Of a stretch of 64,000 nucleotides of DNA, positions 12,350 to 51,091 are shown one piece after another. The notes below the pieces were generated by a model. It ran no database searches and had not been told where the DNA came from. It saw nothing but the letters and a program-made list of their open reading frames with translations. The translations under genes and the position numbers were made by a program. How positions within the stretch are numbered: the first letter of the stretch is position 1; each line of letters starts with the position of its first letter. This stretch comes from a bacterium HR16 (GTDB lineage: Bacteria; Armatimonadota; HRBIN16): positions 7,106 to 71,105 of the forward strand of contig BEHS01000001.1 in the NCBI GenBank assembly GCA_002898895.1, read 5' to 3'.

Positions 12350-12363
12350 GAGTTCACCACATG

Positions 12364-12388
12364 GAGGGCGAGGCTCCGTCCGAGCCGA
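12364..12388. repeat. family-2 hairpin repeat (GGAGGGCGAGGCTCCGTCCGAGCCG), solo copy
   Basis: Same 25-mer at 46616-46640 and inverted at 62025-62052. GGCTC/GAGCC stem. Confidence 0.55.
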
Positions 12389-12409
12389 CATACGGGCAAG
12401 AATAAAGGG

Positions 12410-25349: not shown

Positions 25350-25943
25350 CTATTCTGAACTGTTCAGCTGGTTTAGAATCCACTCCGTCGCCCCTTTAAG
25401 GTCCGGCGCAATGTGGTCGGGTGGGTGGTTCGTCACTTCGGGGGAATCGAGCATCTCCGGCTTCACGTGTCCGCTCAGCACCAGCACGGTCCTTACGCCC
25501 GCTGCGCGTCCCGCAATGATGTCCCTCCATGAATCACCCACGAACACCGATTTCTCCAGCGCGATAGCGTGTTCCCTCGCCGCTCGAAGTAGCAGACCCG
25601 GTTTGGGCTTCCGGCAGTCGCAGTTGTCCGCGTCATCGTGCGGGCAATAGTAGAAGGCGTCGATATGCGCATGGTAATCGCGCAGCATCTCCTGTAGCCG
25701 TTCGCTGATTTGTTTCAGCGCCTCCAGCGTGTACAGCCCTTTTGCCACTCCTGACTGGTTCGAGCAAACAATCACCGGCACGCCCAGCGCATTGAAATGC
25801 GCTATCGCCTCCGCCGAGGAAGGCAACAGATGCAGCTCCTCCGGTTTGGTGACGAACTCTACCGGATCGGCGTTAATCACACCGTCTCTGTCCAGAAACA
25901 GAGCGGGGCGGGTTGTTTTCTCGCTCAAGCGTTCACCTCTCAT
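25350..25943 (-). CDS. gmhB: D-glycero-D-manno-heptose 1,7-bisphosphate phosphatase (HAD family)
   Basis: FLDRDGVIN HAD motif I. CxHxxxDxCxCRKP zinc-binding loop typical of GmhB. Confidence 0.8.
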   Translation of the reverse strand: MRGERLSEKTTRPALFLDRDGVINADPVEFVTKPEELHLLPSSAEAIAHFNALGVPVIVCSNQSGVAKGLYTLEALKQISERLQEMLRDYHAHIDAFYYCPHDDADNCDCRKPKPGLLLRAAREHAIALEKSVFVGDSWRDIIAGRAAGVRTVLVLSGHVKPEMLDSPEVTNHPPDHIAPDLKGATEWILNQLNSSE

Positions 25944-26019
25944 GACATTCTCTAAAAGGACTATATCGGAGCTGAGGACGAATCGTCAAGAGGATACCGT
26001 ACACAGGAGGTGGCTTCGC

Positions 26020-26769
26020 ATGGCACCGCGTGTGCTTATCGGCACTTCCGGCTGGAGCTACGATCACTGGCAGGGTATCTTCTATCCACCAGAACTGGAA
26101 CGCGAAGGGTGGCTTGCCTTCTACGCACGAGCGTTTCCTACCGTCGAGATTAACAGCAGTTTTTACCGTCTGCCCTTTGAGAACATGGTACTCAGCTGGC
26201 ACCGGCGGACACCGGAGCACTTTGTGTTTGCTGCCAAGTTCTCCAGACAGGCAACGCACGTGCAACGCCTGCATGACTGCCAGACGGTCGTACAGCGATG
26301 GATGGAGCGCCTGAGGTTGCTGGAGGAAAAATTGGGCGTGGTTCTGGTGCAGCTGCCGCCCGGACTGCACAAAGATGTGCCGCTGCTGGAAGGATTCCTC
26401 CGGTTGTTCCCCGAGGGCGTGCGCGTGGCGGTGGAGTTTCGCCATCCATCATGGGAGTGCGACGAGGTATACGAGATGCTCCGCGCGCTGGGGGTGGCGC
26501 ACTGCACCATCAGTTACCCACGCTATCCGGTAAACTGGACGGTGACCGCCCCGTTTGCCTACATCCGTTTGCATGGGGTAACGCAGGCGTATGACTACTG
26601 TTACAGCACAGAGGAGCTGCACGACCTCGCCGCACATATCCGCGCTCTGCTCCAGCAGGTACAGCAAGTATACGTGTACTTTAACAACGACACCAACGGC
26701 TACGCTCCCGACAACGCTCGCCAACTGCAAACCATTCTCTCGCTCGACCCCGAGATTGCAGGAACCTGA
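26020..26769 (+). CDS. DUF72 (YecE-like) family protein
   Basis: IGTSGWSYDHWQGIFYP N-terminal signature. RBS GGAGG upstream of ATG 26020. Confidence 0.75.
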   Translation: MAPRVLIGTSGWSYDHWQGIFYPPELEREGWLAFYARAFPTVEINSSFYRLPFENMVLSWHRRTPEHFVFAAKFSRQATHVQRLHDCQTVVQRWMERLRLLEEKLGVVLVQLPPGLHKDVPLLEGFLRLFPEGVRVAVEFRHPSWECDEVYEMLRALGVAHCTISYPRYPVNWTVTAPFAYIRLHGVTQAYDYCYSTEELHDLAAHIRALLQQVQQVYVYFNNDTNGYAPDNARQLQTILSLDPEIAGT

Positions 26770-26813: not shown

Positions 26814-29800
26814 GTGAAGTTGCGAACGGATTGGCCGCTTGTTCTTGTGCTTTTATTGGTGTTTGCGCTACCGGGCGAGTCAAAGCGTCGTCTTAGCGTC
26901 ACACACCTTCTCACGGAATGGCTGGAAAACCCTCTGGGGATAGATGCTCCACAGCCGCATTTCTCGTGGCAGATGCAACATCAGGAGCGTGGTGCCAGCC
27001 AGAGCGCGTACCAGATTCAGGTCGCTAGTAGACCGGAGCTGCTTCGTGATGGCAAAGCGGATATGTGGGACAGCGGGAAGGTCGTATCCTCGCAGAATCT
27101 GCACATCCGCTATGAGGGCAAACCTCTGCAGAGCAGAACCACTTACTACTGGCGTGTGCGGATATGGGACCACAACGACGTTACCAGCGCGTACAGCCAG
27201 CCTGCCACCTTCGAAACCGCCCTTCTGCACCCTGACGAGTGGCAGGCGAAGTGGATTGCAGTGCCCCGAGCGGGTGGAAACGGCTGGCACTCACAGTTCG
27301 CGGACAGCGTGGACGTGACCAAATGGGTGCAGCTAGACCTGCGCCAGCCGGTGGAGTTCCGACGGGTGGTGCTTTACCCCGCCCGCCCGCATAACTGGGT
27401 GCGTGACGAACCCGGCTTTGGCTTTCCTGTGCGCTTCCGCCTCGAAGCCAGCGATGAGCCCGACTTCACCCACTCGCGCGTTCTCGCCGACTACACGCAA
27501 GCCGACGTGCCCAACCCGGGCGCGAAACCGTTCTCCATCGACGTGGGCAATCAGAAGGCGCGCTATGTGCGACTGGTGATTACAAAACTACACCATCCCG
27601 CCGATACGCGCCCGCTGGCGGCGCTGGCGGAGATGGAGGTGCAGGACGCTAAAGGCAATAACCTCGCTCTCTACGCCACCGTAACCACCGACGGCTGGAA
27701 CATGGATAGCATCGAGGAAAACGACTGGGGTCGGGCGATGCTCACCGATGGGGTGCGCGAATCCCGTCCGTCGGATACATACGCCCCTATGCTGCGACGC
27801 GAGTTCAGAGTGGCAGGCAGGGTAAAACGCGCCCGCGCCTACGTCACCGGTTTGGGTTATTACGAGCTCTATCTCAACGGACAGAAGGTAGGCGACCGCG
27901 TGCTGGATCCGCCCTACACGAACTTTCATAAGCGCATCTACTACAGCACCTACGATGTGACTCCCTTGCTTCGTCGGGGTGACAACTGTGTGAGCGCACT
28001 GCTGGGCAACGGCTGGTGGAAGGGCAAACCCCATCTCCTGTTGCAGATGCATATCGAATACACCGACGGCACCGAGCAGACTATCCTCAGCGACGGCGAG
28101 TGGCGCTGGGCAAAGAGTCCAATTCTGGACAACAGCCTGTATCACGGCGAGACGTACGACGCCCGGCTGGAGCAATCCGGCTGGTGCGAGCCCGGCTTTG
28201 CCGAGCAGCAGGGGGAATGGCAACCGGTGCTGGTTAGCGAACTGTCGGGCGTGACGCTTTCGGCGCAGATGATGCCGCCTGTCAAGGTCACGCAAACCCT
28301 CAAGCCCAGATGGATTTCCGAGCCGCGCCCCGGTGTGTTTGTGGTGGATTTCGGACAGAACTTCTCCGGCTGGTGTCGGCTGAAAGTGAAAGGTAGCGCA
28401 GGCACTACCGTGACGCTCAAACATGCCGAAGTGCTGTTCGAGAACGGGCTGGTGAATCAGCAGAACCTGCGCTCCGCCAGAGCTACCGACACCTACATCC
28501 TGAAAGGCGAGGGGGTGGAGGTTTACGAGCCGCGCTTCACCTATCACGGCTTCCGCTACGTGCAGGTGGAAGGCTATCCGGGAACCCTGAAGCCAGAGGA
28601 TATTGAGGGAAGAGTGGTTCATACCTCCTTCACACAACGCGGGCAGTTCGAGTGCTCTAACGAGCTGCTCACCCAGATTCAGCGCAACGCGCAATGGGGC
28701 TACCGCACCAACTGGCATAGCATTCCAACCGACTGCCCCCAGCGCGACGAACGACAGGGCTGGATGGGCGACGCCCAGATGACCGCCAACATGGGCTTGT
28801 ACAACTTCACCGCCGAATCCGCCTACGTGAAGTTCCTGCGCGACATCGCCGACGCCCAGGGTGAGGACGGGCGTATTCCCGACACCGTGCCCCACGTGTG
28901 GGGAACCAACCCGGGCGACCCGCAGTGGGCAGGGGCATACCTCTTTATCGCTTGGGACATGTACCGCCATACGGGGGCGAAGCATCTGCTGGAAGCGCAC
29001 TACGAGGGCTTCAAGCGCTATGTGGAGATGCTGCGTCGGGAGGCAGGAGAGAGCTACATCCTCACCCGCAACAACTACGGCGACTGGGTGGCGGTGGTGG
29101 AAACGCCCAAAGACCTTATCTCCACAGGCACGTACTACCTGAGCGTGAAGGTGCTGGCAGACATCGCGCGCGTGCTGGGCAAACACACCGACGAGCGAGA
29201 GTACCGTGCTCTGTGCGAACGCATCGCTGACGCCTTCAATAAACGCTTCTGGAACGCGCAGACCGGTCAATACGGCAACGGCAGTCAATTCTCTAATATC
29301 TTCCCGCTCTATCTGGGCATTGTGCCGGAGGAACACCGGCAGAAGGTGCTGGATAATGTGATACACGACATCACCGTGAACCACAAAGGACACCTCAGCA
29401 CAGGGTTCATCGGCACACGCTATTTGCTGGATACGCTGACCATGCTGGGGCGTGCCGACATCGCCTATCTGGTCGCCTCACAGGACACCTACCCGAGCTG
29501 GGGCTACATGGTGCGTATGGGAGCAACCACGATATGGGAGCTGTGGAAGTACGAGGTCGGCCCGGGCATGAATTCACACAACCACCCTGCGTTTGGACTG
29601 GTTAGTGGGTGGTTCTATGAGACACTGGCGGGTATTCAGCCCGATGCTTCGCGAGGCGATTGGGAGCATTTCATCGTGCGCCCGCATCCTGTTGGCGACC
29701 TGCGCTGGGCGCAAGCCTCCGTAGATACCGTTCGCGGCAGGGCAGGGGTACGCTGGGAGAGGCGCCCCGACGCTTTTCTGCTGAGCGTCATCGTGCCCGC

Positions 29801-29999
29801 CAACAGCTCCGCAACAGTATACATCCCCAAGCTGGGCATCGCCAACCCCGTCCTGACAGAAGCGGAAGGCAGAGTATGGCGCAACGGCGCGTTTATACCC
29901 AGAGTACCCGGCGTGAAAAGTGCACGTGATGAGGGCGACTGGATGATAGTGGAAGTCGGCTCCGGCGACTATCATTTTAAGCTACAGGCAGACAGATGA
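26814..29999 (+). CDS. alpha-L-rhamnosidase (GH78) with N-terminal carbohydrate-binding domains
   Basis: GTG start with RBS AAGGAGGAAGG. Signal peptide. GH78 N-domain, concanavalin-like and (alpha/alpha)6 catalytic regions (e.g. GLGYYELYLNGQKVGDRVLDP, DCPQRDERQGWMGD). Confidence 0.9.
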   Translation: MKLRTDWPLVLVLLLVFALPGESKRRLSVTHLLTEWLENPLGIDAPQPHFSWQMQHQERGASQSAYQIQVASRPELLRDGKADMWDSGKVVSSQNLHIRYEGKPLQSRTTYYWRVRIWDHNDVTSAYSQPATFETALLHPDEWQAKWIAVPRAGGNGWHSQFADSVDVTKWVQLDLRQPVEFRRVVLYPARPHNWVRDEPGFGFPVRFRLEASDEPDFTHSRVLADYTQADVPNPGAKPFSIDVGNQKARYVRLVITKLHHPADTRPLAALAEMEVQDAKGNNLALYATVTTDGWNMDSIEENDWGRAMLTDGVRESRPSDTYAPMLRREFRVAGRVKRARAYVTGLGYYELYLNGQKVGDRVLDPPYTNFHKRIYYSTYDVTPLLRRGDNCVSALLGNGWWKGKPHLLLQMHIEYTDGTEQTILSDGEWRWAKSPILDNSLYHGETYDARLEQSGWCEPGFAEQQGEWQPVLVSELSGVTLSAQMMPPVKVTQTLKPRWISEPRPGVFVVDFGQNFSGWCRLKVKGSAGTTVTLKHAEVLFENGLVNQQNLRSARATDTYILKGEGVEVYEPRFTYHGFRYVQVEGYPGTLKPEDIEGRVVHTSFTQRGQFECSNELLTQIQRNAQWGYRTNWHSIPTDCPQRDERQGWMGDAQMTANMGLYNFTAESAYVKFLRDIADAQGEDGRIPDTVPHVWGTNPGDPQWAGAYLFIAWDMYRHTGAKHLLEAHYEGFKRYVEMLRREAGESYILTRNNYGDWVAVVETPKDLISTGTYYLSVKVLADIARVLGKHTDEREYRALCERIADAFNKRFWNAQTGQYGNGSQFSNIFPLYLGIVPEEHRQKVLDNVIHDITVNHKGHLSTGFIGTRYLLDTLTMLGRADIAYLVASQDTYPSWGYMVRMGATTIWELWKYEVGPGMNSHNHPAFGLVSGWFYETLAGIQPDASRGDWEHFIVRPHPVGDLRWAQASVDTVRGRAGVRWERRPDAFLLSVIVPANSSATVYIPKLGIANPVLTEAEGRVWRNGAFIPRVPGVKSARDEGDWMIVEVGSGDYHFKLQADR

Positions 30000-30983: not shown

Positions 30984-31961
30984 ATGCAGATACGCCTTTT
31001 GCGCGCGGGAGACGAACCTGCGGTTTTGACACTGTGGGACCGGTGTATGGGGGAGCAGTTCCCGCTGGATTCCGCTCTGTTCGAGCAGAACGTGCTGAGG
31101 GACGCTCACTTTGACCCGGAGGCGGTTTGGGTAGCGGAAGACAATGGGGGAAACCTGCTTGCGTATGCGCACGCGAAGGTGTGCAGAGAACCGCTGGGTT
31201 CGGCGGGTATGATGCCCGAGCAGGGGTGGATCGGCGCACTTGCTTTCCTGCCCAATGAAGAGGGCTTACAGGCGGCTCGCCTGCTCCTGCAAACTGCGCT
31301 GGAGTGGCTGAAAGCGAAGGGGAGAAAGCGGGTAAACTATGGTTCCGACCCTGCCCACTTCTTCCCCGGCGTTCCCACCGAGCAAACCCTCCATCAGCAG
31401 CTCTTGCGGGAGGCGGGGTTCACCATCGGCGAACATGTGGCGGTGGACCTGGTGCGTGAACTGGCGGACTATCGCGTGCCTGAAGAGGTGGAAGCGAATC
31501 TGCAACGCCTGCACGAGGAATACGCCATACGCTCCTGCACCCCCGATGATGTGCCTGCCCTGCTCCGCTTCTTACAGCAGGAGTTCCCCGGCAGGTGGTA
31601 CTACGAGACCGCAAAGAGGCTGGAGGTAGAGGACACCCCTCGCGACATCCTTATCCTCACGCATGGGGACGAGGTAGTGGGATTCTGCCACACTTTTCAT
31701 CGCGGCTCCAAGCGCATTGGGCCATCCATCTACTGGCGCAAGTTGTTGGGTGAAGCGTACGGCGGATTGGGACCCATCGGTCTTGCAGGGAGCACGCGGG
31801 GGAAAGGGTTGGGACTGGCTCTGCTCTGCAAAGGCGTGGAATATGTCAAGCAGCAGGGTGCACAGCGCATGGCGATTGACTGGACCGACCTGGTGGACTT
31901 CTACGGCAAAATCGGCTTCCGCGTGTGGAAGCGATACCATCCGGCGTCTCGACGGATTTAG
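30984..31961 (+). CDS. GNAT family N-acetyltransferase (tandem GNAT domains)
   Basis: Two acetyl-CoA binding Q/RxxGxG/A-like segments (LKAKGRKRV, RGKGLGLALL). Confidence 0.7.
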   Translation: MQIRLLRAGDEPAVLTLWDRCMGEQFPLDSALFEQNVLRDAHFDPEAVWVAEDNGGNLLAYAHAKVCREPLGSAGMMPEQGWIGALAFLPNEEGLQAARLLLQTALEWLKAKGRKRVNYGSDPAHFFPGVPTEQTLHQQLLREAGFTIGEHVAVDLVRELADYRVPEEVEANLQRLHEEYAIRSCTPDDVPALLRFLQQEFPGRWYYETAKRLEVEDTPRDILILTHGDEVVGFCHTFHRGSKRIGPSIYWRKLLGEAYGGLGPIGLAGSTRGKGLGLALLCKGVEYVKQQGAQRMAIDWTDLVDFYGKIGFRVWKRYHPASRRI

Positions 31962-32931: not shown

Positions 32932-34026
32932 CTACTCCTCCTCTACGTCCCTCTCCACCCACACGAATCGCGGCGTTTTCGCGTCGGCGAAGTTCAGCTC
33001 CACCAGCCGACGGAACAGCTGCTCCTCCATCACCTGCTCTGCGAGATCCCTTCGCAAGACGCGAAAATAGAGCTGCATCACGCGATAGTGCACCTTGCCT
33101 AACGCCAACGACCCCGTGCGCATCCCCTCGTCGGTCGCCAGCGTCTGCCCCAATACCGCCCGCGCAATCTCCTTGTTATGAAACTGCACCGCCTGCAGAT
33201 ACGCCGCGCCAACAGGTGACTTGCCCTCTAACAACTCGATCTGCACGTCCTCCGGCAGCACTACCGCCGTCTCCTGCTGGATACGGTCCAGCACCTCCAG
33301 CAGCTCTCGCCGTTCGGCTTCGGGCACATGGCGCGGAACCACCCCCTTCACCGTCGGCGCACCGAACTTCTCCAGCGACAACAGCCAGAACTTCAGCAGC
33401 AACCCCTTCGCCCACCAGTGCTTGTACGCCGCGCGCAGGTCACTGCGCCCCGTCGGCGATTCGTAACTGCCGTTGTAGGAATACACCACGAACTTCTCGG
33501 CGGGCAGAGGCTTCTCCTCACCCGCAGGCGTGCGCAGGTACAATGCCTTCAGGTTTCGGAACTCATCTGTCTCCAGCCGGAACAGGCGGGGCGGTTTGCT
33601 CTTGATGCTCTGCCATATCACCATCCCGCTCCACGGCTCCTGCTCGCACAGCGTGTAGTTAATCTCCTGCACCGAGTAGCCGTGCGCTAAGGCGTCCAGC
33701 GCGTTCAGCAGGATGCGGATCACCGAACCGCGCAGCTGCCCCAGCGCAAAGCGCACCAGCTCCGCCGCCCGTTGTGATGGCGCGTCTTCGCCACCGGGCA
33801 CGATTTGCCAGTCCGCGTCCAGCACGCCGAACTTCTTGGTGGTGAGCGCAGACTGCACCTGCGCATCGGTGAGCATCTCCTCGTACACCCGCTCTCCGCG
33901 CGTGCGAAGCAGGTCGTTCGCATCCCCTGCGCCACCAAAACGAAGGGCGGCGATGGGTTCCACCGCCGCCTGCTCCCGGTCCAGTCCGCGCCGCCTCACG
34001 CGACGCCATAGCTGCGAAAACACCAT
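32932..34026 (-). CDS. hypothetical protein, possibly phage portal-like (DUF935/Mu gp29-like)
   Basis: Weak recollection-based similarity (KFWLLSLEKFGAPTVKG region). Prophage head genes are nearby at 36978-41976. Confidence 0.3.
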   Translation of the reverse strand: MVFSQLWRRVRRRGLDREQAAVEPIAALRFGGAGDANDLLRTRGERVYEEMLTDAQVQSALTTKKFGVLDADWQIVPGGEDAPSQRAAELVRFALGQLRGSVIRILLNALDALAHGYSVQEINYTLCEQEPWSGMVIWQSIKSKPPRLFRLETDEFRNLKALYLRTPAGEEKPLPAEKFVVYSYNGSYESPTGRSDLRAAYKHWWAKGLLLKFWLLSLEKFGAPTVKGVVPRHVPEAERRELLEVLDRIQQETAVVLPEDVQIELLEGKSPVGAAYLQAVQFHNKEIARAVLGQTLATDEGMRTGSLALGKVHYRVMQLYFRVLRRDLAEQVMEEQLFRRLVELNFADAKTPRFVWVERDVEEE

Positions 34027-34051: not shown

Positions 34052-35308
34052 TTATCCCAACACCACCAGCGCGTCCTCCGGCGTGGTGACCACCTGCGCC
34101 CCGCTTGCCTTCAGCCGCTCTATGATTTCCATCGCCTGCCCGCTGGTGAAGTCGCGCTCCTGCCAGTTGCAGTCCGCCAGCAGCACCCGTTTGCCCGCCC
34201 GTTGCGCCTCCTCTACCGCCTGCAGGTTCGCCAGGTTGCCGTATCCAAACGCCACCGGCGCAACGAGTATCGCATCCGCCCTCGCCAGCGCGTCGCGCAG
34301 TAGGGCAAGGCTCTCGGCTGAGATGGGCGTGAACGGCGCCTCCGTGATGACCTCTGCGCCCAGCTCCTGCGCTACCTCCTCGTCGCTATCCAGCAGGTGC
34401 AACACCCCCACCGAAAGATGCCATCCCGCCCGCGCCAGCGCGCCAATCCATCCCGCGCCCGTCCCTCCACCGCAGATCACGTGCACACGCCTGCCGTTGC
34501 CCGCCTGCGACTCCACGTGCTGTAACGTGCGTGGCAACACATGCGGACGCCCCGTCGCCGGATTCACCCGTACCCACGCATCCAGACCGAACACCCGCGC
34601 CAGCAGGGAGGGGGTAATCACCTCCGACGGCGCACCGTCCGCCACCAGCTGCCCCTGTCGAAGCACAACCAGCCTGTCGCAGAACTCTGAAGCGAGGTTG
34701 ATGTCGTGTAGCGCCGCCAGCACCGTCAACCCCTCTTCGCGATTGAGCTGGCGCAGTAGCGAAAGCGTGCCCACCTGATGCGCTACGTCTAGGTGCGTCA
34801 ACGGCTCGTCCAGAAACAGCAAGGGCGTCTCCTGCGCTAACCCACGCGCCAGCACCACCCGCTGACGCTCGCCACCGCTGAGCGTGCCGAAAGCGCGTTC
34901 CGCCAGCGACAGGCTGTCCGTGCGCTCCATCGCCCGCCGAGTCGCCTGCATGTCCTCCGCGCGCTCTTTGCCCCACCAGCCGATGTACGGCGCGCGCCCC
35001 AGCAACACCACCTCCCACGCGGTGAAACCGAACGCCACGTCCTCACGCTGGGGCACAAACGCCAGCCTCTGCGCCACATCCTTCGCCCGCAGCTGAGCCA
35101 GCGGTTGTCCGTCCAGCCACACCTGTCCCTTTTGCGGCTTTAACACTCCGCTGAGCACGCGCAACAGCGTGGACTTGCCGCTGCCGTTCGGTCCCAGCAA
35201 GCCCACAAACTCACCGCGCGAGATACACAGGTTGATGCCCTTCAATACAGGCGTTGCACCGTATCCCGCCCAGATATCTTCAGCACGTACGATTTCTGTA
35301 TTCACCAT
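34052..35308 (-). CDS. ABC transporter ATP-binding protein (FecE/BtuD-like) fused to a C-terminal about 170-aa domain of unknown function
   Basis: Walker A GPNGSGKST, ABC signature LSGGERQR, Walker B LLFLDEP, H-loop. C-terminal extension with GGGTGAG Gly-rich loop. No adjacent permease or substrate-binding genes. Confidence 0.75.
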   Translation of the reverse strand: MVNTEIVRAEDIWAGYGATPVLKGINLCISRGEFVGLLGPNGSGKSTLLRVLSGVLKPQKGQVWLDGQPLAQLRAKDVAQRLAFVPQREDVAFGFTAWEVVLLGRAPYIGWWGKERAEDMQATRRAMERTDSLSLAERAFGTLSGGERQRVVLARGLAQETPLLFLDEPLTHLDVAHQVGTLSLLRQLNREEGLTVLAALHDINLASEFCDRLVVLRQGQLVADGAPSEVITPSLLARVFGLDAWVRVNPATGRPHVLPRTLQHVESQAGNGRRVHVICGGGTGAGWIGALARAGWHLSVGVLHLLDSDEEVAQELGAEVITEAPFTPISAESLALLRDALARADAILVAPVAFGYGNLANLQAVEEAQRAGKRVLLADCNWQERDFTSGQAMEIIERLKASGAQVVTTPEDALVVLG

Positions 35309-35311
35309 TGC

Positions 35312-35340
35312 TTGACAATCCGCTTGTCCGGTGCTATGAT
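35312..35340 (+). promoter_or_regulatory. sigma-70 consensus promoter TTGACA-N17-TATGAT
   Basis: Perfect -35, 17-nt spacer, -10 TATGAT. About 75 nt upstream of the HAF-protein start. Confidence 0.5.
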
Positions 35341-35416
35341 TGCTCCGCCAGCTCGGCATAAGTTTCGCCCGTTCCCACCCGGGCGAGCCTCACTGTGAGA
35401 AAGGAGTGGAAACGAA

Positions 35417-36916
35417 ATGGTTCGCCTATCAACCCTTTACGTTTTCGCCTGCGCGTTCTCCTTCGCGCTGAGCCTCTCTGCCGTCCACGCTCAGTATACC
35501 ATCACCGACCTGGGCGCGATCACCGCTAACGGGCAAAGCCGCGGCTACGGCATCAACAACCTCGGCGAAGTCGCCGGATGGTCGGATGGACACGCCTTCT
35601 TCTGGACAGGCGGTGTGCTCATAGACCTCGGCGTGCTGTCGGGTACCGCCAGCGAAGGGCGCGATGTCAACGACCTCGCACAGGTGGTCGGCTGGAGCGA
35701 TGCCGCACAGGCGCGCCATCCCTTTATCTGGAAAGACCTCAACGGCAACCGCCTCGCCGACCCGGGCGAGATGGTGGACCTGCGTCCCATCCCCAATACC
35801 TGGCAGGGCAGAGCGTACGGCATCAACAACGCCGGGCACGTGGTAGGGTGGTCTGCTATCAACCCCGATGGGGTGTACCACGCCTTCCGCTGGAGTTACA
35901 ACACAGGCGGCTGGTGGGACTGGTTTGACCTCGGCAACATCACCGGCAATCCCGACGAAATCAGCCTCGCTAACGACATCAACAACCTCGGACAGGTGGT
36001 GGGAGGCTCCGGCTCGGCGGGCAGCCGACGCGCTTTCCGTACACAACCCTACGCCGCTATCAACCCGCTCACCGATGCCCTGCCCTATCTGCCCAACGGC
36101 ACAACCGCCGAAGCCTTCGGCATTAACGACCGGGGTCAGGTAGTGGGCTTCTCCAACACGCGCGTGGGAACCAGCACCCTCACCCGTCCCGTACTGTGGG
36201 AGGGCAGTTCTGTTATCGATCTGGGCACACTGGGAGGCAATATCGGACGCGCGTACGGCATTAACAACCTCGGGCACGTCGTGGGACACTCCTATCTGTC
36301 GGACAACATCTCCTTACGCGCCTTCCTGTGGGTGAACGGTGTGCTTCGCGACCTCAACGACCTCCTGCCGCCAGGTTCCGGCTGGGTGCTCAACGAGGCG
36401 CGCGCCATCAACAACTTCGGACAGATTACCGGCTACGGCGCACACAACGGCATTACTCGCGCGTTCCTGATGACACCTGTGCCTACCACCGTCACCGTAA
36501 ATCTGGACGGCTACACGGGCGATTACTCCAGATTGCCCCTGCAGGTGGAGGTGCGCTCGACAACAGGGGAGACTCTGCTTACGTTCAGCCCAGCACTGAA
36601 CGCCGACGGTACGTTTCCCCTCACCCTCACGCCGACGACCTATACCCTCGCCTTCAAGGCAGACCGCTCCCTGCGCCGCGTGCTGACAGGCATCACCGTG
36701 CCGGCGGGAACCCTGGCGGTGAACCTCGTCAACGGCGACGCCGACGGCGATAACGAGGTCAGCCTGTTCGATTTCGGTAAACTGGTCGGCGCGTTCGGTA
36801 AGCTGGATGGAGAGGAGGGCTTTGAACCCACCGCCGACTTCGACGGCGACGGCGAAATCAGCCTGTTCGATTTCGGCATCCTGGTGCGTAACTTCGGGGA
36901 AGTAGGAGATGAATAA
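35417..36916 (+). CDS. secreted HAF-family repeat protein with C-terminal carboxypeptidase-regulatory-like and dockerin-like domains
   Basis: Signal peptide. Six or more GINNxGxVVGWS HAF repeats. C-terminus NGDADGDNEVSLFDFGKLV...DFDGDGEISLFDFGILVRNFGEVGDE paralogous to the 15028-17064 C-terminus. Confidence 0.7.
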   Translation: MVRLSTLYVFACAFSFALSLSAVHAQYTITDLGAITANGQSRGYGINNLGEVAGWSDGHAFFWTGGVLIDLGVLSGTASEGRDVNDLAQVVGWSDAAQARHPFIWKDLNGNRLADPGEMVDLRPIPNTWQGRAYGINNAGHVVGWSAINPDGVYHAFRWSYNTGGWWDWFDLGNITGNPDEISLANDINNLGQVVGGSGSAGSRRAFRTQPYAAINPLTDALPYLPNGTTAEAFGINDRGQVVGFSNTRVGTSTLTRPVLWEGSSVIDLGTLGGNIGRAYGINNLGHVVGHSYLSDNISLRAFLWVNGVLRDLNDLLPPGSGWVLNEARAINNFGQITGYGAHNGITRAFLMTPVPTTVTVNLDGYTGDYSRLPLQVEVRSTTGETLLTFSPALNADGTFPLTLTPTTYTLAFKADRSLRRVLTGITVPAGTLAVNLVNGDADGDNEVSLFDFGKLVGAFGKLDGEEGFEPTADFDGDGEISLFDFGILVRNFGEVGDE

Positions 36917-39835: not shown

Positions 39836-40762
39836 CTAGCTCGCGTTACTGCCGTAAGCAGTCTGCCACAAACCGTAGCCCACGCCGTAACGCGCTCGCG
39901 CGCCGTAATACACCACGTCCCGCAGGAACACACTCTCGCTCACCGACGGGTCCTCCAATGCCGAGAACTCCACCGGCACATCCGACCGCTCCTGCAGAAT
40001 CACCGCACGCACCGCCCGGCTGGTGTCCAGCACAAACCACTGATTGCCTGTGATATACGGGCTGACCACCAGCCTCAGCGCACCTTGCAGCACGTTGCGA
40101 TACGGTGTGTTGTCACCCGTGCCCGCTTTGACCACCACCACCTGCGACTCCAGCAGCTCCATCGCCGCCCAGCGCAGGCGTGGACCCACCAGCAACGTAT
40201 CCGGCAGGATGCCCAGCGGCACGCCCTGATCGTCCTTGAACAGCATCATGCTGGAGATAGCGCTCTGCAGGCTGTCGGGATTCAGCGGTTGGGTGGTGAC
40301 GTTGCTCTGTGTGCCGCTCTCGCCCTCCGAGTGTGCGCTGGAGAAGAGCGGTTGACCGTCGTAGCACGTCTGGCTGAACCCGTCCAGTAACGCTTTCACC
40401 ACCAGATAGTCCTTGTGCCGTGCCGCCTCGCGCCCCAAATCCTGCACCCGCAGTCGGATGGCTCCAATCTGTTCGTCCTCCAGAGCGCGTCTCTCTACCG
40501 CTATTGTGCTCTCCCACACCGTGTCCTGAATGGTGTAGTTATATGCCCGTAAGCCCTTCGGCATGCGCTCGTCCACAAACTCGCGCATCGCAGGCACACT
40601 GCCCAGCCACCCGTACTTCTGCACAGGCAGCTCGGTCTGAATCACCGTTGCAATCTGCGGATAAATCGCCGACTCCACCTGCCGTCGATACGCCTCAAAA
40701 AAGTCTGCACGCAAACCCGCCTCCAGCAAGGCGCCCATTTCGCTCCGTGTAATCGCTGGCAT
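39836..40762 (-). CDS. Mu-like prophage major head subunit (gpT family)
   Basis: Length about 305 aa and conserved gpT-like blocks (YPQIATVIQTELPVQKYGWLG..., QGVPLGILPDTLLVGP, NQWFVLD). Confidence 0.7.
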   Translation of the reverse strand: MPAITRSEMGALLEAGLRADFFEAYRRQVESAIYPQIATVIQTELPVQKYGWLGSVPAMREFVDERMPKGLRAYNYTIQDTVWESTIAVERRALEDEQIGAIRLRVQDLGREAARHKDYLVVKALLDGFSQTCYDGQPLFSSAHSEGESGTQSNVTTQPLNPDSLQSAISSMMLFKDDQGVPLGILPDTLLVGPRLRWAAMELLESQVVVVKAGTGDNTPYRNVLQGALRLVVSPYITGNQWFVLDTSRAVRAVILQERSDVPVEFSALEDPSVSESVFLRDVVYYGARARYGVGYGLWQTAYGSNAS

Positions 40763-40776
40763 TGTCTCTCCTCCTC

Positions 40777-41190
40777 TTACCGCACCGCGTTATCGATACG
40801 AATGCGTGCTTGCGTCGCCGAAAGCACCTCCACCACGTAACCCACCAGCTGGTTGTTGGTGGAAGTGGTGGTCAGCGTGTTGTCGTCCGCTGCGTACATC
40901 GCCTGCCCCACGCTTGCCTGCGTGAAGCCGCTCCCGTTATACACGTAAGTGCCACTCTTCCACACGCGCACCGACCTCGCGCCCGCCGCACCGCCTGTGT
41001 TGTCCACACCTTCAAACGCTACTCCCACGAACACATCGCTGCTTGTGCCGCTGCGCGATGGGTAGGCGTAACCGTCACTGCGCACGCTCACCAGCGCACC
41101 TTTGTAAATCACCGTGTTCGCGCCCACCTTGTAACTCACCAGCTCGCCCGGCTTGTCCTGTGGGTCGTACGCGCTCGTCAACGCTGCCAT
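40777..41190 (-). CDS. phage head decoration/cement-like protein (DUF2190-like)
   Basis: Gly/Ala-rich 137-aa protein directly upstream of the major head gene. Typical GALV..G..Y motif pattern. Confidence 0.4.
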   Translation of the reverse strand: MAALTSAYDPQDKPGELVSYKVGANTVIYKGALVSVRSDGYAYPSRSGTSSDVFVGVAFEGVDNTGGAAGARSVRVWKSGTYVYNGSGFTQASVGQAMYAADDNTLTTTSTNNQLVGYVVEVLSATQARIRIDNAVR

Positions 41191-41193: not shown

Positions 41194-41976
41194 CTATCGC
41201 CTCCTTCCTTCCGACAGATAACGGGCAATCTGCTCGGGGGACAGGTCGCCCCAGTACTTGCGCAGGAACGCCTCCTCTTCCACGCTCAGCGTGTGCTCCT
41301 GCTCGCCTGCAGGTGCGATCTCGCCAAAACGCACAGTCGGCGGCAACGCCTCCACAAAACGGGCGAACACCTCCGCCACGCTCGCGCTACCGCCTGCAAA
41401 GGTCACTGCCTGCGTGCCCTGCAGGAGCAGTGTCTTCGCCATCTCGCGCGTCGCCGGCGTCAGCTTCCCCTGCCTAAGCCATCGCTGCAACGTCTCCTCT
41501 ACCTGTCGCTCGCGCAGGGCAAACTCTGCCGCCTCCGCCCGCCGACGCAACGCCTCCATGTCCTGTTCCAACGCGGTCACCTCCGTCAAAAGTATCTCGC
41601 CCGAAAAAGCCACCGCGCCCGCACTCAGCAGGCGCGCATCCGCCACACGCGGAGTCGCGGTCACCGACACCTCCACAATCCGCTTCAGGTCGGGCGTCAC
41701 CGCCACGCTGATGCCGCGAATGCCCAGCCGTTTCAGCAACGCCTCCGCTTCCGGCAGCAGGGTCAGCCGCCCGAACAGCTCCTTGCCCCGTCGCCACAAC
41801 CGCTTCAGCTCTCCAATCTGCCATCCCTGCGACAGGTGCTCCACCATCAGCGGAACCGGCGCGGTGAAGCCCTCCACCAGCGATTGCAACTGCTCCTCGC
41901 CCACTTCCAGCCCCTTGTCGGGATAGGAGCCGGCTTCAAACAGCTTCGCCTCTCGCTCCACTTCCAACGCGCTCAC
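41194..41976 (-). CDS. Mu-like prophage protease/scaffold (gpI-like)
   Basis: Position directly upstream of decoration and major head genes. Central coiled-coil (ALEQDMEALRRRAEAAEFALRERQVEETLQRW) typical of scaffold. Confidence 0.45.
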   Translation of the reverse strand: MSALEVEREAKLFEAGSYPDKGLEVGEEQLQSLVEGFTAPVPLMVEHLSQGWQIGELKRLWRRGKELFGRLTLLPEAEALLKRLGIRGISVAVTPDLKRIVEVSVTATPRVADARLLSAGAVAFSGEILLTEVTALEQDMEALRRRAEAAEFALRERQVEETLQRWLRQGKLTPATREMAKTLLLQGTQAVTFAGGSASVAEVFARFVEALPPTVRFGEIAPAGEQEHTLSVEEEAFLRKYWGDLSPEQIARYLSEGRRR

Positions 41977-43501: not shown

Positions 43502-44307
43502 GAGGTGCGTGGCGGATGAACACCCTCTACTACGGCGATAACCTCGACATCCTGCGTAAACACCTGCAGGATGAAACAATAGACCTCATCTACCTCGACC
43601 CGCCCTTCAACAGCGCACGTGACTATAACGTGCTCTTCCGCGAGCAGTCGGGTGAACCCGCGCAGGCGCAAATCAAAGCCTTCACCGACACATGGCAATG
43701 GAGCGAACGCACCTACGTGCAGTTCTGCGAGGAGTGTCCCAAACCCGCCCTTGTGGAACTGCTACAGGGCTTCGTCAAAACACTGGGGCGCAACGATGTC
43801 ACCGCCTATCTGGTGATGATGGCGCCCCGACTGGTGGAACTGCACCGCGTGCTCAAACCCACCGGAAGCCTCTACCTGCACTGCGACCCCACCGCCAGCC
43901 ATTACCTCAAGGTGATGCTCGACGTCATCTTCGGAGCGCGTAACTTCAAAAACGAGATCGTGTGGAAACGCACCAGCGCACATAGTGGGGCAAAAAGATG
44001 GGGACCTGTTCATGACACCGTTCTGTTCTATACAAAGAGCGATACATACACGTGGAACAAAGTTTTCAGCCAGTTTGATGCTAAGTACGTCGAGGAGTTC
44101 TACAGATACGAGGACGATAGAGGCAGGTATCAGCTGGTAGACCTTACAGGAGCGGGAGTTCGCTATGGGGAGTCAGGTCAGCCTTGGAAAGGGGTGAACC
44201 CCACTGCTGTTGGCAGGCATTGGGCAGTTCCGCAAAAGCTGGTAGAGGAAGTGGTTGGGAGGGAACGCGCGTCGCAATTAAGTGTGCAAGAGAAACTGGA
44301 TGCACTA

Positions 44308-45492
44308 GTACTTGACCTCTCATCAATCTTGTGGTATAATCTCGCTAATTTGCTAACAGGAGTGCAACCATGCGAAAATACAGCGTCCAATTGACCGAGC
44401 AAGAACACGAGCAACTGACCGACATCATCCGCAAAGGCAAAGCACCTGCCAGACAGATCACCCGCGCCCACATCCTGCTCAAAGCACACAACGGCGAACG
44501 CTACGCCGACATCGCCCACGCTGTGGGGGTCAGCGAGGTCACCGTCACCACCGTCTGTCGGGAGTTCCAGACGCTGCGCACCGACGCCATCTATCGCAAA
44601 CGCCCCAATCGCGTGTATGCCCGCCGACTGGACGGCGCAGCAGAAGCGCAGTTAATTGCTCTGGCTTGCAGTGCGCCACCGGAGGGACGGGCTTCGTGGA
44701 CGATGCAGTTGCTGGCAGACCGGATGGTGCAGTTGGAGGTGGTGGAGACCATCTCCGCCGAGACAGTGCGTCGTACGCTGAAAAAAACGACCTTAAGCCT
44801 TGGCAGAAGCGTTTCTACTGCATCCCCCCAGAGGCAAACGCGGCGTTTGTAGCGGGGATGGAGGACGTGTTAGACGTGTATCAGCGTGCTTACGACCCCC
44901 ACAGACCGGTGTTATGCCTGGATGAGTTGCCGGTGCAGTTAGTGGGTGAAGTGTTCACGCCGTTGCCGATGGAGCGAGGCAAGCCGAAGCGCGAGGATTA
45001 CGAGTATAAGCGGGAGGGCACAGCGAGCGTGTTCATGGTGTTTGAGCCGCTGGCAGGCAAGCGTTATCTGTTTGTGCGCTCCCGTCGCACAGCGTGTGAT
45101 TGGGCGGAGGTGATGCAGCAGATAGCAGACGAGTTATATCCTGAAGCGGAGCGGATAGTGATGGTGATGGACAATCTGAACACGCACGATGTGGCGTCGC
45201 TGTATAAGCGTTTTGTGCCTTCGGAGGCGTGGCGATTGCGTCAGCGTTTTGAGATACACCACACACCGGTTCACGGTAGTTGGTTAAACGTGGCGGAGAT
45301 CGAGTTAAGCGTGTTAGTGCGTCAGTGTTTGGAACGTCGGATAGGGGATATAGGGGCGTTAGACCGGGAGGTACAGGCGTGGGCGCGGTTGCGCAATGAG
45401 GCGTGCGCTTGTGTGGACTGGCAGTTCACGACGGCGGACGCCCGCATCAAGTTGAAGCGTCTCTACCCAAAGATTGAGGAGAGGTGATGTAC
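44308..45492 (+). mobile_element. IS630/Tc1-mariner family insertion sequence (1185 bp) with TA target-site duplication
   Basis: Imperfect 23-bp terminal inverted repeats GTACTTGACCTCTCATCAATCTT / AAGATTGAGGAGAGGTGATGTAC flanked by TA (44306-44307 and 45493-45494). Two overlapping transposase ORFs. Confidence 0.85.
44370..45487 (+). CDS. IS630-family transposase (orfA HTH plus orfB DDE, joined by programmed -1 frameshift)
   Basis: Slippery A7 run A_AAA_AAA_C at 44782-44788. orfA ...LKKTTLSLG in frame 0, and -1 frame continues [18 protein letters not shown]... with the DDE region. Confidence 0.75.
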
Positions 45493-46480
45493 TAGAAGAG
45501 GCAGGCTATATTGTATGGCCCGAGAAAGGGCGAGTGCCCCGCTACAAACGGTATCTGGACATGAACCCCGGTAACCTCATTCAGGACGTTATCACCGACA
45601 TCAACCCGATTTCCTCTCAAGCCCGTGAGCGTCTTGGCTATCCCACACAGAAACCTATCGCCCTGCTGGAGCGAATCATTCTCGCGTCCAGTAACGAGGG
45701 CGACGTAGTGCTGGACCCCTTCTGCGGATGCGGAACCGCCATCGTCGCCGCCCAGAAGTTGAAACGCCACTGGGTCGGCATCGACATCACTCATCTTGCC
45801 ATTGCGCTCATCAAATACCGTCTCGCCGACATGTTTGACCTGCGTGAGGGCAAAGACTACCTCGTTGTCGGCGAACCCACCACCGTCGAGGACGCCCGTG
45901 CCCTTGCCCATCATGACCGCGACGAGTTTCAGCGGTGGGCAATCGGGCTTATCCCCCGTGCCCGTCCCTATCAAGACAAAAAAGGCGCGGACACCGGCAT
46001 CGATGGCGTGCTCTTTTTCAAAGACGACCCAGACGACCCCAAGAAGGTGGTGATTCAGGTCAAAAGCGGGCACGTGGGTGTGAAGGACATTCGCGACTTT
46101 CGTGGGGTGATGGAGCGCGAGAAAGCCACTCTCGGCTTGTTCGTTACCCTTGACGAACCCACCCGCGCCATGCAGACCGAAGCGGAGAGCGTCGGCTTCT
46201 ACGTCACCCCGCTGGGCAAACTGCACCTGCCTCGCCTGCAGATTCGCACCGTCGAGCAGCTCCTGCGCGGCGAGGGTTTCCAGATACCCGGTGCGGCGAT
46301 GCTGATGGGCGTCTCCCGTGCCGAGCGCGTGCAAGAACAGTTCCGCCAGGGCGAGCTGGAGATGTAATCACGCGGACAGTGTTCACCTGCCCTGTCTTGT
46401 CCGGCAGCCGATGCTATAGACCCTGTACTGTAGAGCGCCAAGGCACGACTGCTTGAATGGGAGCAGACCGTTTCCACTTA

Positions 46481-50165: not shown

Positions 50166-50972
50166 TCAATACCTTTCCAAAAACTCTCGCCCCTGCCGTA
50201 GAGACTCTACCACATCCTGCCCGCTTTCGTCTTCCACCGCGTACCACCCATCGTAACCGATGGACTTCAGCAGGGAGATATACTCATTCCAGGGTACTGC
50301 TCCTTGCCCGACAGTGGGTCTGCCTGTTTCGGGATGGCGGTCCTTGGCGTGCGTATGCACGATGTGTGGAGCCAGCTCGCGCACACCTTCCAGCACGCCA
50401 TACCACAGCATGTTCGCCGGGTCGTAATTTACCCTCAGCGCAGGGCTGCCGATGTCCTCGATAAACTGCCTCAACACGGGCGCAGGTTCCATGCCCGTCT
50501 CGATGCAGAAGATACCTCCTACCTTCTCGGCGTGTTTGGCTATCTGCTCTATCGCGTCGCGAATAATGGGGTAGACAGGGTCGCTCTTGTGCTCGGGGAT
50601 AACGCCCGGATGCGTCGTGACGATAGGCGAGCCCATGTCCACCGCCAGTTCGATACACCGTTGCGTCTTTGCGATGCGTTCCTCAATGCCTTCCGCCTCA
50701 TCGAATCCGCCAAAGCGCGTGGGGCCGGACATTTGCGCACAGAATCCGCTGATTTGCAACCCGAACGATTCTACCCGCCTGCGCCACTCGGCGCGCTGTG
50801 CGCCTTGGCACACATCGGGGTCTAACACACAGGGTCCGTAGCTGGCAACGTTCCACATCTGCACGCCCTGAAAACCCAGCTCAGCTGCCGTCTGCAGAGC
50901 GTTCATCAGCCTCTCCTCCGTCTCCCCTGCCGACAGCGACCACAATGCAACTCCAATCTTCAATGAACCCAT
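50166..50972 (-). CDS. sugar phosphate isomerase/epimerase (xylose-isomerase-like TIM barrel)
   Basis: RBS GGAGA then ATG at 50972 (MGSLKIGVALWSL). Conserved E/H/D metal ligands pattern. Confidence 0.75.
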   Translation of the reverse strand: MGSLKIGVALWSLSAGETEERLMNALQTAAELGFQGVQMWNVASYGPCVLDPDVCQGAQRAEWRRRVESFGLQISGFCAQMSGPTRFGGFDEAEGIEERIAKTQRCIELAVDMGSPIVTTHPGVIPEHKSDPVYPIIRDAIEQIAKHAEKVGGIFCIETGMEPAPVLRQFIEDIGSPALRVNYDPANMLWYGVLEGVRELAPHIVHTHAKDRHPETGRPTVGQGAVPWNEYISLLKSIGYDGWYAVEDESGQDVVESLRQGREFLERY

Positions 50973-51091
50973 TCTCCTGCTCCTCGCTGGCAAAGTGTGT
51001 ATGGATATAGTTTCACAAAAGGCAAGAGAGTTCCTGTTTGGCAGGATTCACCACCGCCTGACGGGGAAAAGAATTCCGTCAGGGAGTACCG

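Follow-up and report, generated by a model that had tools for sequence, protein, structure and literature searches.

A C-terminally extended ABC ATPase gene without linked partner genes in an Armatimonadota bacterium: a probable subunit of a corrinoid-type importer

The 418-aa protein of bacterium HR16 described here belongs to a catalogued family, in which it is unexceptional, and is not a novel soluble ABC protein. Most likely, it is the ATPase subunit of a BtuCD/HmuUV-type importer whose cargo is B12-like corrinoids. Specifically, with a probability of roughly 65%, we assign it to a type II (BtuCD/HmuUV/FhuCDB class) binding-protein-dependent ABC importer, as the subunit that hydrolyses ATP in the cytoplasm. 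It falls in a subfamily with a C-terminal MJ0874 domain, members of which are encoded elsewhere in Peripla_BP_2-FecCD-ATPase operons. The gene by itself matters little, being a recognisable importer ATPase whose 'orphan' state in the 64-kb window (the whole stretch of DNA that was analysed) mirrors the dispersed gene order of the phylum. Of broader though modest interest, a conserved ~150-aa Rossmann-like domain is tied almost exclusively to B12-type importer ATPases in many lineages of archaea and of anaerobic or thermophilic bacteria.

Gene call and features

The ABC ORF is a genuine gene. An identical NCBI protein, 'FecE [bacterium HR16]' (Armatimonadota), carries both PF00005 and PF27219, and comparison with five orthologs gave dN/dS values of 0.08-0.14. 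The ratio was ~0.1 in the nucleotide-binding domain (NBD) and in the MJ0874 domain alike, and both domains are under purifying selection. The stop codon lies at 34052-34054 on the minus strand, and two starts are possible, an ATG at 35308 (418 aa) or an upstream ATG at 35359 (435 aa). The former was preferred because ortholog alignments begin at this methionine, because the identical database protein is called as 418 aa, and because the 17-codon extension contains a sigma70-like promoter for the divergent HAF gene. No consensus promoter for the ABC gene and no riboswitch were found in the intergenic region between these two genes. Coordinates are given in Table 1.

Table 1. Positions in the window of the ABC ATPase gene, its domains and motifs, and the adjoining intergenic region
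Feature	Position	Strand	Description or evidence
ABC ATPase gene, complete	34052..35308	minus	418 aa plus stop; NBD and C-terminal MJ0874 domain
NBD, residues 1-260	34529..35308	minus	PF00005, E 4.2e-33
Walker A GPNGSGKS, residues 39-46	35171..35194	minus	Invariant in 70-sequence alignment
Q-loop VPQ, residues 85-87	35048..35056	minus	At least 90% conserved in 70 family members, Armatimonadota included
ABC signature LSGGE, residues 143-147	34868..34882	minus	Family alignment
Walker B LLFLDE, residues 163-168	34805..34822	minus	Family alignment
Inter-domain linker, residues 261-269	34502..34528	minus	Predicted disordered; pLDDT <50 at 261-268 in full-length AF2 model
MJ0874 domain (PF27219), residues 270-418	34055..34501	minus	Predicted six-stranded Rossmann-like alpha/beta fold
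Gly-rich loop HVICGGGTG, residues 276-284, after strand 1	34457..34483	minus	Family alignment and model
D-x-D (D307, D309), end of strand 2	34382..34390	minus	Both Asp invariant
G-x-x-N-L-x-N-L, residues 355-362, after strand 4	34223..34246	minus	G355, N358 invariant
RDFTSG, residues 385-390, after strand 5	34139..34156	minus	D386 invariant, G390 at least 90% conserved
Divergent intergenic region, ABC/HAF, 108 bp	35309..35416		Sigma70-like promoter on + strand, 35312-35340

The nucleotide-binding domain is of the type II importer class

An earlier note, made from the sequence alone, had described the N-terminal ~260 residues as a complete FecE/BtuD-type NBD, and this description holds. The catalytic motif set of a type II importer ATPase is entirely intact, comprising the Walker A motif, Q-loop, signature, Walker B motif and H-switch (H201). 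In type II importers, the Q-loop region touches the coupling helix of the permease. The best NCBIfam matches were ATPases for corrinoids, heme and F420-0 as well as FecE, FepC and FhuC, and a sequence search of the PDB placed FhuC (7lb8) and HmuV (4g1u) closest, ahead by ~50 bits. Foldseek likewise returned HmuV as the best match (TM 0.91, 42% identity), followed by BhuV, MolC, BtuD and FhuC, with TM scores of 0.87-0.92 and identities of 28-42% across these five proteins. By sequence and by fold, the closest relatives of this domain are type II importer NBDs. Pfam identified a single NBD, and the tandem cassette or coiled coil of ABC-F, UvrA and SMC proteins is absent.

The C-terminal region is a Rossmann-like domain of a catalogued family

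A separate C-terminal domain had also been proposed, and its existence was borne out, although it is shorter than the ~170 aa first suggested: ~150 aa after a low-confidence linker. The AF2 model of this domain (pLDDT 95, pTM 0.90) adopts an alpha/beta Rossmann-like fold, in agreement with the small fold with a Gly-rich loop that had been noticed. Within this loop H276 and G280 are invariant, and conservation reaches at least 90% at C279, G281, G282 and G284. The D-x-D site occupies the position at which classical Rossmann folds carry a ribose-binding acidic residue.

The domain belongs to a named Pfam family, PF27219 'MJ0874', for which the precomputed match on the identical protein has an E value of at most 1e-5 and which is annotated on all 120 homologs listed. 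The window protein has all of the family-conserved residues, namely H276, C279, G280-G282, G284, G301, D307, D309, P325, F326, G355, N358, D386 and G390. With a Pfam release older than PF27219, the query domain and 22 aligned domains returned only scattered sub-threshold matches to DUF6743, F420_oxidored, YjeF_N and SLOG cluster4, with no consistent family. A PDB sequence search with the domain gave nothing significant (the top hits, BphD hydrolases and SDRs, had E values no better than 0.021), and fold searches gave generic Rossmann matches only. The cobalamin-binding Rossmann domain (PF02310, DxHxxG) was found neither as a profile match nor among the top structural matches. Literature searches on MJ0874 and on C-terminal domain fusions of BtuD yielded no paper and nothing relevant, respectively, and no solved structure or published function of the domain was found in the searches made.

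MJ0874 domains accompany importer ATPases in operons of other lineages

The MJ0874 domain is rare: at 50% identity, it accounts for only 623 clusters in a set of 1.84 billion representatives. Most of these clusters are 410-440 aa long and carry the domain at ~265-415. It was joined to a type II importer NBD in 79 of the 80 sampled genomes carrying it, and the sequence data suggest that it occurs almost exclusively in fusion with B12-type importer NBDs. Six short representatives were considered as potential stand-alone copies, and no genuine stand-alone protein was established among them. Examination of the contigs of two of these showed that both are assembly artefacts: P0155 starts 30 nt from a contig edge, and P0181 represents the end of a fused gene split by 100 N, with binding-protein and FecCD genes upstream. 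The starts of the other four (P0143, P0192, P0238 and P0259) fall within the C-terminal tail of the NBD. Apparent single-chain FecCD-NBD-MJ0874 fusions in the long ORFs of loci L064 and L070 were also rejected, as the FecCD matches sit on other ORFs.

A FecCD permease gene lies 0-40 bp from the ATPase gene in 47 of the 80 loci, none of them from Armatimonadota, and a Peripla_BP_2 gene is usually present there too. The earlier note had named homologs consistently next to FecCD-type permeases, together with a known substrate-gating C-terminal domain, as the observations that would count against its reading. We found the permease adjacent frequently, not always, and the C-terminal region is a catalogued family, not a known substrate-gating domain.

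In bacteria, operon-type relatives are often preceded by a cobalamin riboswitch, and in archaea they often have cobamide-salvage genes around them. The cobalamin riboswitch RF00174 was detected upstream of seven of 13 bacterial operon-type loci; to our knowledge, B12 riboswitches are not used in archaea. Recurrent archaeal neighbours were CbiZ, CobD/CbiB, CobQ and a CobD-type aminotransferase. For example, binding-protein, FecCD and ATPase genes are found in this order within a cobalamin gene cluster that also includes a TonB receptor in Orenia, and next to CbiZ, CobD and CobT in a Thermoprotei/Methanomethylicia genome, while in Syntrophoarchaeum the FecCD gene adjoins the ATPase gene.

Loci without linked partners in Armatimonadota and two archaeal clades

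The linkage to a FecCD permease gene and a Peripla_BP_2 gene that is typical of type II importer ATPases is absent from the HR16 locus. A phmmer search at E up to 10, covering every window ORF of 80 aa or more, found no homolog of either, which agrees with the description of the gene as a positional orphan. Neither was a cobalamin riboswitch found in the window. Across this ATPase class, gene linkage is typical but not obligatory.

The same state extends to the phylum, as no permease or binding-protein gene was found within 5-6 kb in any of 16-18 Armatimonadota loci, and no cobalamin riboswitch in 11 of them. Linked partners are also absent in two archaeal clades, ANME-1/Methanosarcinales and Archaeoglobaceae. 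The neighbours of these orphan loci are unrelated housekeeping genes, and no conserved neighbour is shared by them across clades. Of 94 sites conserved to at least 85% among operon-encoded members, 74 are kept and 20 relaxed in Armatimonadota, and 87 are kept in the archaeal orphans. A neighbour-joining tree of the protein follows host taxonomy. With intact catalytic motifs and Q-loop, most of the 94 sites kept, dN/dS at ~0.1 and a tree that follows taxonomy, the orphans still look like transporter subunits. The unlinked state in Armatimonadota fits the non-operonic gene organisation published for the Chthonomonas genome (PMC4959169).

The earlier note had instead favoured a role in regulation, translation or defence rather than transport. 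In its present form, this idea holds that in Armatimonadota, ANME-1/Methanosarcinales and Archaeoglobaceae the protein is a soluble ATPase repurposed for ligand sensing or regulation, acting without a permease. The clade-wide and evolutionarily stable, not sporadic, lack of a linked permease speaks for it, as do the lack of a riboswitch at the window locus and at the 11 Armatimonadota loci, the housekeeping neighbours, and the 20 relaxed sites. Nevertheless, we consider it unlikely, as the NBD remains closest to those of type II importers, its Q-loop is conserved along with every catalytic motif, the archaeal orphans keep nearly all conserved sites, and a single NBD is unlike the architecture of ABC-F, UvrA or SMC proteins. 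Unlinked or shared importer ATPases are also well known, such as MsiK of Streptomyces, MsmX of Bacillus subtilis and FhuC of Staphylococcus aureus. The generally non-operonic Chthonomonas genome counts against this idea as well. So do the fusion to type II importer NBDs and the frequent permease adjacency described above, together with the riboswitch and cobamide-salvage context of relatives. Membership of a defence system was examined with PADLOC and rejected, as the matches were weak and generic (mad3 was best at 99 bits, where transporter models reached 265-334 bits; AriA, GajA and PtuA at most 28 bits). None of the features of non-transport or defence ABC proteins (tandem NBDs, a coiled-coil insertion or nuclease partner, a specific profile match) was found.

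Cargo of the putative importer

The NCBIfam model NF007082 ('corrinoid ABC transporter ATPase') aligned residues 10-387 to profile positions 7-382 of 402 (E 1.5e-99) and was the only model to match the full-length architecture. The C-terminal domain alone matched positions 246-385 of this profile (E 1.8e-14). The full protein scores 333.8 bits, far short of the 537 required of an equivalog, and we therefore regard it only as having the same architecture, not as an NF007082 equivalog.

The importer might instead carry heme, a siderophore or another metal chelate. The heme model NF010068 is the only NCBIfam equivalog whose cutoff was passed (265.6 bits for the NBD, cutoff 261), relatives are named 'heme ABC transporter ATP-binding protein' or 'FecE' at NCBI, HmuV is the best structural match of the NBD, and the locus has no B12 riboswitch. 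However, NBD sequence predicts substrate poorly among type II importers, the fusion to MJ0874 co-occurs with cobalamin riboswitches and cobamide-salvage genes wherever the context is informative, and the corrinoid model alone spans both domains. A cargo other than corrinoids appears improbable.

Phage-like neighbourhood

The neighbours had been read as a portal-like ORF and a HAF protein on the other strand, and profile searches agreed with both. The Mu-type portal ORF (32932-34026, PF06074, E 5.5e-71) is on the same strand as the ABC gene and starts 25 nt downstream of it, and the HAF-repeat protein (35417-36916, TIGR02913, six repeats) is on the opposite strand. Mu-like head genes surround the ABC gene, with gpI-like, decoration and gpT genes on one side and the portal on the other. 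This placement and a match of the NBD to PHROG 293 'ABC transporter (moron)' would suit a moron or auxiliary gene of a Mu-like element, but we give this very little credence since the PHROG match covers the generic NBD only, no MJ0874 domain was found in 2.9 million IMG/VR contigs or 50,697 phage genomes (INPHARED), Chthonomonadales orthologs are in non-phage contexts, and the protein tree follows host taxonomy.

Proposed role of the ATPase and its C-terminal domain

Under the importer assignment, the ATPase would act as a dimer whose Q-loop regions engage the coupling helices of a dimeric FecCD-family permease. ATP hydrolysis would power the import of a substrate handed over by a binding protein, either a corrinoid or, less likely, another metal chelate. 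The Rossmann-like domain would hang below the NBD on its flexible linker and may bind a small, probably nucleotide-containing, cytoplasmic ligand in a crevice of invariant residues, for which H276/C279 and the GGG loop, D307/D309, N358 and D386 are candidates. Ligand binding could shut the transporter off in a replete cell (trans-inhibition, as in MetNI and ModBC), or the domain could receive the imported cofactor. In this Armatimonadota lineage, the ATPase gene would have lost its linkage to the permease and binding-protein genes, a situation shared by all the Armatimonadota genomes sampled. The partner genes are assumed to exist and would be expected at other genomic sites, and two or more permeases may share a single ATPase. 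The place of the gene between the HAF-repeat gene and the Mu-like portal is probably a lineage-specific accident of gene order with no functional link.

We infer that the MJ0874 domain is a ligand-binding regulatory module or a cargo-receiving one. A broader proposal, which we advance tentatively and at clearly less than even odds, is that the domain serves corrinoid-type type II importers specifically, as a module that binds a ligand in the cytoplasm and either trans-inhibits transport when the cell is corrinoid-replete or accepts the cofactor through its invariant His/Cys/Asp crevice. The unlinked gene of Armatimonadota, ANME-1/Methanosarcinales and Archaeoglobaceae would then encode an ATPase shared among permeases, or even a corrinoid sensor acting on its own. 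As no appended regulatory domain for type II importers was found in solved structures or in the literature searched, MJ0874 would be the first such module described. If true, trans-inhibition or hand-off mechanisms would extend to type II ABC importers, with a bearing on corrinoid homeostasis in archaea.

Comparison with known systems

On the one hand, the NBD is alike in fold, sequence and motifs to HmuV (4g1u), BhuV (5b57), FhuC (7lb8), BtuD (4dbl/4fi3/2qi9) and MolC/HI1470 (2nq2). On the other hand, these solved proteins have no domain after the NBD, and their alignments with the window protein end at ~260 columns. Appended domains are known from MetN (C2/NIL) and from ModC and MalK (TOBE-like). 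They resemble MJ0874 in position, being attached by a linker to the C-terminus of the NBD, and in a plausible regulatory logic, and trans-inhibition by NBD-appended domains is established in type I importers (PMC3971661). However, these domains have beta-rich OB or ferredoxin-like folds and belong to type I importers, whereas MJ0874 is predicted to have a different, Rossmann-like fold and belongs to type II importers.

The separation of the ATPase gene from permease genes has counterparts in MsiK, MsmX and S. aureus FhuC, the last of which serves the Hts and Sir permeases. These shared ATPases lack an MJ0874 domain, and sharing by the window ATPase is hypothesised.

The remaining comparison is with Halobacterium sp. 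NRC-1 BtuD and its model NF007082 (PRK09536, ~400 aa). By score, the window protein is a distant member of this subfamily and not an ortholog under the NCBI rule, and, unlike Halobacterium btuD, its gene adjoins neither btuC nor btuF. Orthologs of BtuFCD in Halobacterium are reported as an archaeal corrinoid transporter in a passage of PMC5282855 that cites Woodson 2005. Both proteins combine a type II NBD with an additional C-terminal domain, which is ~140 aa long in the Halobacterium family.

Family identity and domain architecture

The ABC gene is genuine and belongs, as an ordinary member, to a catalogued family in which a type II importer ATPase is joined to the domain MJ0874 (PF27219). 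Precomputed Pfam annotation assigns PF00005 plus PF27219 to the ABC protein and to all 120 homologs listed, so the domain search of the C-terminal part proposed in the earlier note leads to a named family; our local Pfam scans of this part gave nothing significant because PF27219 is newer than the Pfam copy used. The identical database protein is named [quoted passage not shown], and close relatives (72-92% identity) derive from Armatimonadota MAGs.

The nucleotide-binding domain (NBD, residues 1-260) is complete, as had been claimed from the sequence, with a PF00005 match (E 4e-33) and the Walker A, Q-loop, LSGGE, Walker B, and H-switch motifs. In the full-length AlphaFold2 model (70-sequence alignment, pLDDT 93.6), the sole low-confidence stretch, residues 261-268, lies between the NBD and an alpha/beta C-domain (residues 270-418). 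The appended part was correctly recognized as a separate domain, but it has about 150 aa, preceded by a linker, instead of about 170 aa. The open reading frame ends at 34052 on the reverse strand and could start at ATG 35308 (418 aa) or ATG 35359 (435 aa). The former is favored because orthologs begin aligning at this Met, the identical database protein has 418 aa, and the 17-codon extension contains the sigma70-like promoter of the divergent HAF-repeat (HAF) gene.

The top NCBIfam model was NF007082 (PRK09536, "corrinoid ABC transporter ATPase"), a 402-position profile aligned to residues 10-387 with a score of 333.8 bits, below its equivalog cutoff of 537; the C-domain alone matches it at 1.8e-14. 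The nearest solved proteins are NBDs of type II importers: FhuC (7lb8) and HmuV (4g1u) lead all others by about 50 bits in the PDB sequence search, and the top fold matches are HmuV (TM 0.91, 42% identity), BhuV, MolC, BtuD, and FhuC.

Operon context of the family

A genome survey with the domain alignment as query, at one genome per species, retrieved at least 584 loci, of which the best 80 were analyzed. The NBD-MJ0874 fusion was present in 79 of these 80. The synteny of homologs, a check suggested in the earlier note, revealed an ORF for the type II permease FecCD 0-40 bp away in 47, usually with a binding-protein gene (Peripla_BP_2) about 1 kb away. In Orenia the binding protein, permease, and ATPase genes lie within a CobU/CbiA/CobD/TonB-receptor cluster, in a Methanomethylicia/Thermoprotei genome the same operon is next to CbiZ, CobD, and CobT, and in Syntrophoarchaeum the ATPase gene adjoins FecCD. 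CbiZ, CobD/CbiB, CobQ, and a class I/II aminotransferase recur as archaeal neighbors. Cobalamin riboswitches (RF00174, 77-140 bits) were found on the operon strand in 7 of 13 bacterial loci with adjoining FecCD, several of the others being truncated contigs; nearly all lie upstream of the operon, and in one locus (L057) another copy follows the ATPase gene. Haloarchaeal BtuFCD orthologs are described as the archaeal corrinoid transporter in PMC5282855 (citing Woodson 2005). On the basis of these operons, riboswitches, cobamide-gene neighbors, and haloarchaeal orthologs, this is a family of importer ATPases, with corrinoids as the most probable cargo.

In Bathyarchaeia (L028-L083), three further gene families recur near the operons in addition to cobamide genes, encoding a Diphthami_syn_2-like ATP-pyrophosphatase in 15 loci, a radical SAM/SPASM protein in 13, and a DUF4443/CggR_N regulator in 8.

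Orphan ATPase genes

FecCD was absent within 5-6 kb in about 30 of the best 80 of at least 584 loci. These orphans are not randomly distributed but concentrated in clades, namely Armatimonadota (all 16-18 loci, HR16-like and Chthonomonadales), one ANME-1/Methanosarcinales clade, and one Archaeoglobaceae clade, together with a few singletons. Their neighbors are unrelated genes (ThiS/ThiF/JAB, cytidylate kinase, eRF1, FBPase, GrpE). The lack of nearby transporter genes reported earlier extends to the whole 64-kb window, where FecCD and Peripla_BP_2 seeds gave no phmmer match, even at E 10, among all ORFs of 80 aa or more. Neither the window nor 11 Armatimonadota loci contained a cobalamin riboswitch.

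The clade-wide absence of permease linkage would suit a soluble ATPase repurposed for regulation, translation, or defense, as the earlier note proposed. However, the orphans keep all NBD motifs and the Q-loop region in the family alignment. Of 94 positions with at least 85% conservation among operon-encoded members, Armatimonadota retain 74 and archaeal orphans 87, and the ABC gene compared with five orthologs has a dN/dS of 0.09-0.12 in the NBD and 0.09-0.19 in the C-domain. From these patterns, the orphan proteins look like working transporter subunits. This conservation, the single NBD, and the weakness of the PADLOC matches make repurposing unlikely.

Importer ATPases that are unlinked or shared between permeases are known, such as MsiK, MsmX, and S. 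aureus FhuC. The genome of Chthonomonas calidirosea is "disorganized" and non-operonic, with scattered pathway genes (PMC4959169). By analogy with both, the most economical reading is that partner permease and binding-protein genes would be located elsewhere in the genome, the orphan position being a gene-order trait of the phylum.

Import of a cargo other than corrinoids is slightly less probable still: the heme ATPase model NF010068 is narrowly above its cutoff (265.6 versus 261 bits) and substrates are poorly predicted from NBDs, but every informative setting has a B12 context.

Genomic surroundings

Domain matches agree with the neighbors named earlier: the ABC gene is followed, 25 nt downstream, by a Mu-type portal ORF on its own strand, and the HAF-repeat gene lies on the opposite strand. 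Together, the HAF and ABC genes split a set of Mu-like head genes, with gpI-like, decoration, and gpT genes on one side and the portal and a 239-aa ORF on the other.

Features of the window around the ABC gene (window coordinates)
Feature	Position	Strand	Remark
DUF72 protein	25729-26769		host gene, unrelated to transport
GH78 alpha-L-rhamnosidase	26814-29999		host gene, 1061 aa, unrelated to transport
Double-GNAT acetyltransferase	30984-31961		host gene, unrelated to transport
Head-gene segment	32118-34026	-	
Portal	32932-34026	-	downstream of capsid genes
Terminator-like hairpin	33946-33970	-	strong
ABC gene	34052-35308	-	418 aa
HAF promoter	35312-35340	+	strong
HAF-repeat gene	35417-36916	+	
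Head-gene segment	36978-41976	-	
gpT major head protein	39836-40762	-	
Decoration protein	40777-41190	-	
gpI-like protease/scaffold	41194-41976	-	
Small ORFs (several)	within head-gene set		no assigned family
DNA methylase + Mrr_cat, N-terminal part	43516-44394		
DDE_3 transposase	44666-45487		
DNA methylase + Mrr_cat, C-terminal part	45474-46367		
PF01261 gene	50166-50993		free-standing

Head-gene order is conserved in a relative, L003 (segments 3869-8360 and 11282-13253; dS about 0.6-0.7), where omega values of 0.03-0.09 indicate strong purifying selection. Among the annotated ORFs of the window and L003, neither a terminase nor a tail gene was identified. The set might represent a GTA-like, domesticated head module instead of a decaying prophage. 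Although head genes on both flanks would fit a phage moron, the MJ0874 domain was not found in IMG/VR or INPHARED and the protein phylogeny is host-like, which makes this origin for the ABC gene highly improbable.

The syntenic 21-kb stretch of L003 has no counterpart of the rhamnosidase or GNAT gene. Its restriction-type DNA methylase/Mrr_cat gene is one 540-aa ORF (392-2014), apparently split in the window by the transposase gene insertion. The HAF promoter, in the 108-bp divergent intergenic region, is a near-consensus sigma70-type element (TTGACA-17-TATGAT, TG before TATGAT, 11/12 matches); no comparable promoter was found for the ABC gene. The hairpin, whose 11-bp stem has 9 GC pairs and is followed by CTTCGTTTTG, is located 56-80 nt into the annotated portal ORF from its 5' end, before the start of the Portal_Mu match (residue 46). 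It is identical in locus L013 and its stem is retained in L003; the number of terminator-like sites in this region equals chance expectation. The hairpin may act as terminator of the ABC transcript; alternatively, the start of the portal ORF may be wrongly annotated.

The MJ0874 domain

When 1.84 billion representatives were scanned in full by HMMER with the C-domain, only 623 clusters were retrieved (E up to 1e-3), mostly proteins 410-440 aa long in which the domain occupies about residues 265-415. In two representatives of about 690 aa (P0245, P0247), the NBD and MJ0874 are followed by a xylose-isomerase-like TIM barrel (PF01261, AP_endonuc_2) as third domain. Both "stand-alone" proteins with contigs examined were artefacts: one gene starts at a contig edge (L093, 1-30) and the other is broken by 100 N inside the NBD (L096, 5450-6000). 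Four further short representatives begin inside the NBD C-terminal tail, and none of the six was established as a genuine stand-alone copy. Metagenome gene calls overstate such copies in domain-architecture counts.

Modelled by itself (residues 266-418; pLDDT 95.2, pTM 0.90), the C-domain has six strands with alternating helices, and the small fold with a Gly-rich loop anticipated earlier is recovered. Its invariant or near-invariant residues are at C-terminal strand ends or helix N-termini: strand 1 is followed by H276-x-x-C279-G-G-G-x-G284, strand 2 by D307-x-D309, strand 3 by P325-F326, strand 4 by G355-x-x-N358, and strand 5 by D386. In the model, these residues line the crevice in which Rossmann sheets canonically bind their ligands. 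The classical nucleotide-binding arrangement combines a Gly-rich loop following strand 1 with an acidic residue following strand 2, and together with the conserved crevice this suggests that the C-domain binds a small ligand.

The residual interest lies in this uncharacterised domain, nearly exclusive to B12-type importer ATPases; neither the PDB sequence search nor the literature searched yielded a ligand, structure, or publication for it. No solved ABC ATPase has it, as the fold alignments to HmuV, BhuV, MolC, BtuD, and FhuC all end after about 260 columns. Because it is fused exclusively to ATPases of corrinoid-type importers, its role would likely be either to receive cargo or to regulate transport, in the manner of the trans-inhibition described for MetNI and ModBC (PMC3971661).
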